A stretch of DNA of 22,870 nucleotides from the NCBI GenBank assembly GCA_013375475.1, contig JABXKD010000061.1:1-22870 (forward strand), given 5' to 3'. The notes below the pieces were generated by a model, which was given only the letters and a program-made list of their open reading frames with translations, searched no databases and was not told the origin of the DNA. Numbering within the stretch: position 1 is the stretch's first letter; every line of letters starts with the position of its first letter. This document shows positions 21,450-22,870 of the stretch, one piece after another. This DNA comes from Promethearchaeota archaeon (GTDB lineage Archaea; Asgardarchaeota; Lokiarchaeia; Sigyniarchaeales; SOKP01). A program made the position numbers and the translations under genes.

Positions 21450-21725
21450 TTGAATTTAAAGTAAAATTTTTTCAATTGACCTTAAATTTTTGACATTAAT
21501 TGTTCATTTAATTGATAAAAACATCAAAATTATTTACATCTGGCTTAGAACTCTTTAAATGCTGCTAAAATCAGAGAGATAATTTTATATACAAGTTTAA
21601 CTTATATTTTATTATCAAAAAGTTGGAATTAGTTAAGGGCTAACAATAATAGATCGGTTGTACTATTACTTGATCCACCTTTCTGAACCTATAATTAAAA
21701 ATTAATAATTTTAGTGAGATTAAAA

Positions 21726-21926
21726 TTGCCGAATCCTAATAAAGAGAAGAAACCAGCAATGCAAAATATTACTATTAACATTCCTGATATATATGATGTT
21801 AACATTCAAAAACTCATCAAAATGAAAGTTGTTCCTAGTCGCTCAGAGGCAATTAGAACTGCCTTAAGGGAATTTTTTCGTACTGAATATGAACACTTAC
21901 AATTATTAGGATTTTTTGACGAGTAG
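21726..21926 (+). CDS. Ribbon-helix-helix (CopG/MetJ-like) transcriptional regulator
   Basis: MQNITINIP....IQKL......SRSEAIRTALREFF. Start likely TTG 21726; alternatives are GTG 21714 or the internal ATG. Confidence 0.85.
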   Translation: MPNPNKEKKPAMQNITINIPDIYDVNIQKLIKMKVVPSRSEAIRTALREFFRTEYEHLQLLGFFDE

Positions 21927-21947
21927 AACCAAAAAAAATTAAAATTA

Positions 21948-22193
21948 TTATCTTCGTTTTCGTATTTTTCTTGCTTCTCTTTCTACTTCTCTTAAGATAA
22001 CAATATCACTAACTTGAATGGGACCCTTAACATTTCTGGTTAAAATTCGGTTTCTATCCGGGCCTTCAAGGATTCTCACCTTAATTTGATTAATCTCGCC
22101 TGTTAAACCGGTTCTTCCAACTATCTGAATGACTTCAGCGGGAACTGAAAAATCCTGTTCGGTTTTTCCTTTTGATTTATCTATTTTTGCTAA
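21948..22193 (-). CDS. rps28e: 30S ribosomal protein S28e (eS28), 81 aa; inferred TTA start; not in ORF track
   Basis: Hand translation: (L/M)[80 protein letters not shown]. It has the eS28 motifs GRTG, RNVKGP and EREAR and lies directly after rpl7ae, as in other archaea. Confidence 0.95.
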
Positions 22194-22199
22194 GGTTTT

Positions 22200-22204
22200 T
22201 CACC
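22200..22204 (-). promoter_or_regulatory. Shine-Dalgarno GGTGA for rps28e
   Basis: Minus strand GGTGA-AAAACC-TTA; same 6-nt spacing as at rpo7. Confidence 0.7.
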
Positions 22205-22210
22205 AGATAG

Positions 22211-22579
22211 TTATTTTATTGCAGCTACCTTCTTTATAATATCTTCTAATTCTCGATCGTTTCCAGTGCCCACATTTTCAATTGCGATTGCAGAAGAAGC
22301 AACATTGATGCGAGCTGAATTCCCTAATTCCTTTTTCGTTGAAACATAACAAAAAGGAATACTCTTTTCTTCGCAAAGTAATGGAATGTGAAATAAAATC
22401 TCGGGAGGGGTTACGTCTTCTGCCATAATAACCAGTTTTGCCAAACTTCTCTCGATTGATTTTGTAACCTCATTCATTCCTTTTCTAAGTTTAGAATCGC
22501 GGGTGGAAGCTACTTTATCTAAAAAACTCTTAATTCCGTTTTTTAGATCGTCCGGAATTTTAAATTTTATATAACTCAT
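22211..22579 (-). CDS. rpl7ae: 50S ribosomal protein L7Ae (eL8)
   Basis: MSYIKF..P...KLRKGMNEVTKSIER..AKLVIMAEDVTPPEI..HIPLLCEEK.IP...KKELG. ATG at 22579 preferred over the track's TTG at 22594. Confidence 0.96.
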   Translation of the reverse strand: MSYIKFKIPDDLKNGIKSFLDKVASTRDSKLRKGMNEVTKSIERSLAKLVIMAEDVTPPEILFHIPLLCEEKSIPFCYVSTKKELGNSARINVASSAIAIENVGTGNDRELEDIIKKVAAIK

Positions 22580-22870
22580 TTTTTCTCTTTCCAATATATT
22601 TGTTTTAATATATTATCACAAATCATCGATTTTTAATGTATTACTTAATTTAGGATATAAAATAAAATTTTTGATTTGAAGGTGTTATGATTTTTTTTAA
22701 ATCTATATTTAAGAAGAATGAGATATTCATCATGAAAAATTTATCAACCAAGAGCGAGAGAATAATGAAGAAAATATATATAATTTTTTGGAATATTACT
22801 GAATAATTTAGGAGATGAATTATAAAACAGAATAGTAATTTTTTAAGTTGATTCTTGGTTCAAAAGACTC

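Follow-up and report, generated by a model that had tools for sequence, protein, structure and literature searches.

A conserved TTA codon at the ancestral start position of the ribosomal protein gene rps28e in a lineage of Asgard archaea

Non-canonical initiation and the rpl7ae-rps28e junction

In Escherichia coli, AUU serves as the start codon of infC, the gene of initiation factor IF3, and of pcnB, and NCBI translation table 4 lists UUA as an initiation codon in relation to kinetoplastid mitochondria. Coupling of termination and reinitiation at neighboring genes reportedly occurs in both archaea and bacteria. To our knowledge, no natural UUA start codon has been described in archaea or bacteria, and a search of the archaeal start-codon literature likewise yielded none. 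In an E. coli reporter series covering all 64 codons (Hecht et al., bioRxiv 10.1101/063800), near-cognate codons initiate at 1-2% of the AUG level and codons beyond AUG, GUG, UUG and four near-cognates at about 0.01-1%, as far as the accessible part of this preprint goes, the main text of which does not give UUA.

The rps28e gene described here, which encodes ribosomal protein eS28, shares features with each of these systems and departs from each of them. As in infC and pcnB, a weak non-canonical start appears to lie behind a Shine-Dalgarno (SD) sequence on a translation-related gene, and the likeness to infC extends to the fidelity factor aIF1, which in the present genome also lacks a canonical start in its own gene. 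In contrast, AUU is a single mismatch and IF3 autoregulation was demonstrated experimentally, whereas rps28e does not encode a fidelity factor and its unusual start is a prediction from sequence. The kinetoplastid mitochondria are similar in that UUA is accepted as an initiator, but they are organelles of an unrelated lineage with their own initiator tRNA and editing biology and without SD sequences. With termination-reinitiation systems, rps28e has in common that it is a downstream operon gene, located 17 nt from the upstream stop codon, and coupling to rpl7ae termination could compensate for the weak start; however, in the cases described so far the stop codon overlaps or abuts a start codon that is canonical, while rps28e has a separate SD sequence and no canonical start. 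The E. coli reporter, finally, in the part of the preprint available, offers a likeness in that codons which are not even near-cognate initiate with methionine at a low level, although this is an engineered reporter, whereas in rps28e the supply of a stoichiometric ribosomal protein would depend on such a codon in nature.

The window, i.e. the whole stretch of 22,870 nucleotides analyzed here, carries both genes on the minus strand. Of the two, rpl7ae (22211..22594; L7Ae, Pfam PF01248, E 2.1e-23) comes first in the operon and is contained in the list of open reading frames; its longest frame begins with TTG at 22594, and an ATG is also present at 22579. Following the rpl7ae stop codon TAA (22213-22211), the minus strand reads CTATCT, GGTGA, AAAACC, TTA, GCA, AAA, ATA and GAT, precisely as in an earlier sequence-only reading, which had also given the 17-nt distance between this stop and TTA correctly; the distance to ATA is 26 nt. 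The SD-like GGTGA (22200..22204, minus strand), read directly from the sequence, is invariant in all 33 loci in which the corresponding start position is occupied by TTA, and contains both an out-of-frame GTG (22203-22201) and an in-frame TGA (22202-22200), which closes the rps28e frame upstream. Six nucleotides after GGTGA lies TTA (22191..22193, minus strand), the codon aligned with the TTG, GTG or ATG start of orthologues and our favored initiator. The rival initiator ATA (22182..22184, minus strand; codon 4) follows GGTGA by 15 nt and is the sole near-cognate codon with a single mismatch in the 5' part of this rps28e copy.

Counted from TTA, the rps28e coding region (21948..22193, minus strand) comprises 81 codons and the stop codon TAA (21950-21948); the frame is free of stops from 22199 to 21951, leaving 83 codons open. 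The first in-frame ATG, GTG or TTG is a GTG (22077..22079, minus strand) at codon 39 and, since this is the first canonical codon, the list of open reading frames holds just a 43-aa fragment (21948..22079). The Pfam match to eS28 (PF01200, E 1.7e-27) extends over residues 19-79 of the open frame (83 residues) and profile positions 4-64 of 64. Judged from this span, GTG 22079 lies within the conserved eS28 core and is not plausible as a start; the list of open reading frames and the Pfam span thus bear out the earlier claim that no canonical start precedes it, and the unbroken frame with its full Pfam match agrees with the view that the protein is otherwise intact. Immediately 3' of the stop codon, a directly read T-rich tract (TAATTTTAA followed by T8; 21931..21947, minus strand) is a candidate for the end of the rpl7ae-rps28e transcript, with a putative role as terminator. 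The usual follower, rpl24e, is absent directly after rps28e in the window. A small gene of the ribbon-helix-helix (CopG) type on the plus strand (21714-21926; Pfam E 1.4e-4) converges on the rps28e end. An RNA-library contig spans the 3' end of rpl7ae and the entire rps28e coding region, a weak hint of co-transcription. No Rfam family matched at 21800-22870 (E <= 1), and the predicted RNA fold of 91 nt at the rps28e start is not unusual (z-score -0.07).

Integrity of rps28e and its start position among relatives

A gene without a canonical start in a draft assembly (3.92 Mb in 288 contigs, 6.4% contamination, G+C content 32.5%; G000) might have resulted from misassembly or be a pseudogene in decay. 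Several lines of evidence stand against this and make it extremely unlikely. A contig of 511 nt from DNA run X1 (depth 52), which may be the source sample of the assembly, covers 21850-22267 with no differences and no gaps. A second contig of 391 nt, obtained in another study from RNA-library run X7, covers 21953-22343 without a gap, and all of its seven differences fall within rpl7ae (22238-22307) and none into the start region of rps28e, while RNA runs X6 and X4 end at 22176 and 22158, short of this region. In all 33 TTA loci, exactly six bases separate GGTGA from TTA, mostly without the run of A residues. The possibilities raised before, namely that the run of five A residues is really one of four or that TTA is a misread TTG, are contradicted by both contigs and the 33 concordant loci, and an assembly error at either place was rejected on these grounds. 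The same TTA occurs in the same frame at all of these loci, the changes in the rps28e core are mostly synonymous across them, and the frame is unbroken and matches the Pfam profile in full. Furthermore, rps28e is a universal ribosomal protein gene and yielded a single match in the 3.92-Mb assembly at E <= 10; a second intact copy, which would have left this one as a possible pseudogene, was not found at that threshold. The gene also sits in a conserved position, with rpl7ae directly upstream in the window and in the loci of the genus. We conclude that rps28e is a real, functional gene which has lost its canonical start codon, and that it must be translated from an unusual one.

Editing of the mRNA, by which the A of UUA or another base would be changed to give UUG or AUG, would reconcile TTA with a canonical start. 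This explanation has no direct support, and the single RNA-library contig across the site carries the genomic letters; the contig is, however, weak evidence against editing, since rare variants are lost in contigs and DNA may be present in the library. Such mRNA editing is not known to us from archaea, and we consider it very unlikely here.

The start position was compared across relatives. The gene is present in all 42 genomes of the genus, and the comparison comprised 122 loci, made up of the genus genome loci and 79 metagenome loci (80 were read, 79 of which include the start region); the nearest public proteins are labelled as Lokiarchaeota or Promethearchaeota metagenome-assembled genomes. 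The codon aligned with TTA of the window is TTG in 65 loci, TTA in 33 (the window and 32 others), ATG in 13, GTG in eight, ATA in two and CTG in one. The variation among orthologues that had been predicted by the sequence-only reading is therefore found, and includes codons other than those it had named. ATA (twice) or CTG at this position belongs to other lineages, represented by metagenome loci L104, L110 and L121. In seven loci (L014, L021, L022, L024, L114, L117 and L127) an in-frame stop directly precedes TTG or GTG, which identifies the aligned codon as the ancestral rps28e start, and GGTGA occupies the same place in most orthologues with TTG or GTG.

Of the 33 TTA loci, 14 belong to 13 genomes of the genus and 19 are metagenome contigs; together they represent 29 distinct sequences. 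One genome (G049) has two TTA-type loci (L032 and L046) on different contigs, which may point to contamination of the assembly or to more than one strain in it. A tree was computed from the rpl7ae and rps28e sequences without the start region; in it the TTA rows fall into two well-supported groups within a clade of 21 rows (SH-aLRT 99), in which these two groups and one TTG group appear as an unresolved three-way split; the tree is compatible with a single TTA origin. Both TTA groups share the derived states ATC TTA GCA AAA ATA as opposed to TCC TTG GTA AAG ATT, and because of these shared states around the start codon TTA is likely to have arisen once.

Near-cognate starts in the source genome

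A census of the source genome returned 166 in-frame sites at which a codon that is, or precedes, the first canonical start stands in register with an SD 5-mer. In 23 of these, here termed orphan sites, no canonical start occurs in the next eight codons and coding-like sequence follows. The SD-aligned codon at 17 of the 23 orphan sites is ATT (6), ATA (4), ATC (3), ACG (3) or CTG (1), compared to 2.5 expected from codon usage (binomial P ~2e-12); these near-cognate sites include C277:41427(-), C267:6569(+), C212:35088(-) and C11:8204(+) in addition to 13 more. TTA is not enriched, with two sites, one of them rps28e, versus 1.0 expected. The other candidate for a TTA start, a thioredoxin-like gene (G000:C214:20298-20303; L129/L135), was rejected, as it is better explained by an AAG one codon upstream: this codon is ATG in 24 of 30 orthologues and AAG in six, including the source genome, and it lies 3 nt after GGTGA, so that a 3-nt spacer works in the genus.

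The genome contains 280 coding-like open reading frames with a late canonical start. A Pfam check covered six proteins, and in four genes the first canonical start lies downstream of the beginning of the domain. Two of the four, encoding a RagA-like GTPase and a dodecin, have ATA six nucleotides behind GGTGA, the dodecin frame being devoid of any canonical start, and in the other two, encoding an SMC-like ATPase and a PIN nuclease, the codon is ACG with a stop directly upstream. Of 30 genus orthologues of the SMC-like gene, 22 retain ACG and two have ATG at this codon; of 30 GTPase orthologues, 18 retain ATA and six have ATG. By this conservation, these near-cognate starts are old. The source genome thus uses single-mismatch start codons widely, and rps28e, far from being an isolated oddity, is a striking case within a lineage-wide relaxation of start-codon use; in the published literature we searched, nothing was found on near-cognate starts in Asgard archaea.

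Further observations concern individual genes. One GTPase orthologue (L253; G015:C3) has TTT at the SD-aligned codon and ATA two codons downstream, and this TTT is a possible second start with a double mismatch. Three others (G045:C57:13473-14102, G019:C7:53940-54569 and G054:C52:78124-78753) have 30 additional nucleotides over the matched part, along with two in-frame TGA codons. The gene of ribosomal protein L11 (G000:C230:9912-10382; L130/L165) has no canonical start before residue 39, and in three genomes (G052:C2, G020:C16 and G005:C107) the first 28 residues of L11 match in a frame different from that of the rest, which could be due to a frameshift, an error or recoding. The gene of aIF1 (SUI1; G000:C234:645-983; L255) has no ATG, GTG or TTG before the zinc knuckle; its ATT codons are the candidates, and by its sequence aIF1 probably starts at one of them. 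By analogy to IF3, such a start might possibly serve as feedback on start-codon stringency.

UUA and AUA as candidate initiators

The 33 TTA loci were inspected codon by codon. GGTGA and the A following it are invariant within the TTA clade, and the two bases after GGTGAA are hypervariable, with three to four states each. The codon before TTA (-1) is ATC in 26 loci, ACC in three including the window, ACT in two, CTC in one and GCC in one. Both TTA and AAA at codon +2 occur in 33 of 33 loci. Codon +1 is GCA (22), the synonymous GCG (5), TCA (3) or GTA (3), always encoding a small residue (Ala, Ser or Val), and codon +3 is ATA (23), ATG (6), ACA (3) or GTA (1). Synonymous sites vary at most codons in the same sequences. 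These counts therefore indicate that conservation sets in at or just before TTA and that no alternative start is common to all loci, and no single near-cognate codon explains them, because four have ACA or GTA instead of ATA or ATG at +3 and seven lack ATC at -1. TTA is thus the only candidate in all 33 loci, and the three codons following it behave like coding sequence. Taken alone, the invariance of TTA is weak evidence because these loci show no variation in two of the four core leucine codons either.

The position of TTA relative to GGTGA points in the same direction. Among 1395 genes whose first canonical start is ATG, 54 GGTGA motifs were located upstream, with a peak at a spacer of 6 nt (16 of 54) and most spacers between 4 and 9 nt; spacers of 3 nt and 15 nt were each observed once. 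The rps28e arrangement, GGTGA-N6-TTA, accordingly has the commonest spacer of the genome. A start-context matrix was derived from 393 ATG starts with an upstream stop 8-14 codons away, the codon itself being ignored. By this measure TTA scores 7.5 bits, close to the 90th percentile for true starts and exceeding the 99th for internal codons, compared to 4.1 bits for ACC at codon -1 and 0.8 bits for ATA at codon +3 (around the 25th percentile of true starts); true starts have a median of 3.2 and a 90th percentile of 7.7, and the 99th percentile of internal codons is 5.6. We therefore tentatively favor UUA, the aligned invariant codon, as the start of rps28e translation, while giving this reading somewhat less than an even chance. 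An argument against it is that two of the three bases of UUA are mismatched to the CAU anticodon. In the draft assembly, aragorn identified 29 tRNAs only, and tRNA-Met(CAT) and tRNA-Leu(TAA) are not among them.

The window has no codon with a single mismatch at the SD-aligned place, TTA differing from AUG at two positions and ATA being 15 nt away. Alternatively, translation might start at this AUA (22184-22182) to yield a protein of 78 aa beginning with MDKSKGK, in which case TTA GCA AAA would be a leader and ribosomes would find the start by searching after termination or independently of the SD sequence; in relatives without ATA, the start would be the ATC that immediately precedes TTA. AUA has a single mismatch, and as outlined above it is a real start behind GGTGA-N6 in the genes of the RagA-like GTPase and dodecin, in the former with conservation in 18 of 30 orthologues. 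At codon +3, ATG arose at least twice in the tree (in L031 and in L011 together with L013). No TTA locus lacks both ATC at -1 and ATA or ATG at +3, where 0.85 would be expected, a difference that is not significant. Many public proteins of 78 aa begin with MDK; two NCBI proteins, P0036 and P0039, begin in this way and otherwise equal the frames of L003 and L034, the DNA of which has ATA, and this is consistent with annotators calling ATA, another strain with ATG being also possible. A 3-nt spacer can be functional, as seen in the thioredoxin-like gene. An SD 4-mer is present in 257 of 991 confident starts of the genome, leaving about three quarters without one, and SD sequences are described as rare in Lokiarchaea in the accessible part of a 2026 review (PMC12993045). 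On the other hand, a 15-nt spacer was found in only one of 54 cases, the context score of AUA is low, ACA or GTA replaces it in four loci, ATC at -1 is missing in seven, and the supposed leader shows the conservation pattern of coding sequence, in contrast to the hypervariable bases immediately upstream of it. Geometry and conservation thus favor TTA, whereas codon chemistry, the habit of the genome and apparent annotation practice favor ATA. Going by the near-cognate and other levels given in the accessible part of the E. coli preprint, a badly spaced AUA could be about as strong as a well-placed UUA. We accordingly regard AUA as a serious possibility, which we rank only slightly behind UUA and likewise give less than an even chance. 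The earlier proposal that TTA or ATA is the start holds insofar as both are serious candidates in this copy, TTA being the more probable initiator by a narrow margin.

As a further explanation, ribosomes might start at the GTG (22203-22201) that is part of GGTGA, perhaps reinitiating there at a distance of 7 nt from the rpl7ae stop, and then slip by +1 from CUU to UUA at CUU-AGC. The yeast Ty1 and EST3 +1 sites are CUU-AGG-C and CUU-AGU-U, which CUU-AGC of rps28e resembles. In 31 of the 33 TTA loci the GTG frame has CTT, followed by AGC (27), AGT (3) or ATC (3) as the next codon of the loci; AGC is rare in the genome (6.9 per 1000), and the mini-ORF in the GTG frame is open up to the slip site. 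However, GTG has no SD sequence before it, two loci have TTT for CTT, and the would-be slow codon varies. The Ty1 mechanism, moreover, depends on the absence of a CUU-cognate tRNA-Leu, and aragorn finds tRNA-Leu(GAG), which is cognate to CUU and a poor match to UUA, to be present. Conservation of the GTG is uninformative because the same GGTGA serves as SD sequence for TTG and GTG starts in orthologues. Taken together, a frameshift appears improbable. The remaining probability beyond the readings discussed falls to mixed or other starts.

The ancestral TTG probably changed to TTA in the common ancestor of a subclade of this Loki-type genus, and TTA has since been kept through at least 13 species. 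If UUA is the initiator, as we tentatively prefer, then with GGTGA still located exactly 6 nt upstream the small subunit would still be placed with UUA in the P site, where the initiator tRNA might start, inefficiently, to yield (M)AKIDKSK... Such a start may be tolerated since the lineage seems to check start codons loosely, as suggested by its AUA, AUU, AUC, ACG and CUG starts and by aIF1 without a canonical start. In addition, ribosomes finishing rpl7ae 17 nt upstream may keep the site loaded by coupling. That UUA is a genuine and stable initiator of an essential gene through exact SD placement and a lineage-wide loosening of proofreading involving aIF1 is an account we hold as tentatively as the UUA start itself, and with slightly less confidence.

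Gene finders restricted to ATG, GTG and TTG miss rps28e or truncate it to the 43-aa fragment, and as this is a universal marker gene, its loss affects completeness estimates and marker-gene trees of Asgard genomes. An essential ribosomal gene that has kept TTA through many speciations shows the extent to which the choice of start codons has become relaxed in this lineage, and the dozens of ATA, ATT, ATC, ACG and CTG starts point in that direction too, as does the aIF1 gene with its missing canonical start. Since eukaryotic scanning evolved from the aIF1/aIF1A/aIF2 machinery that is present in Asgard archaea, a lineage that tolerates near-cognate and perhaps double-mismatch start codons constitutes a natural test case, which could show how SD positioning and codon-anticodon checking each contribute to setting the fidelity of start-site selection.
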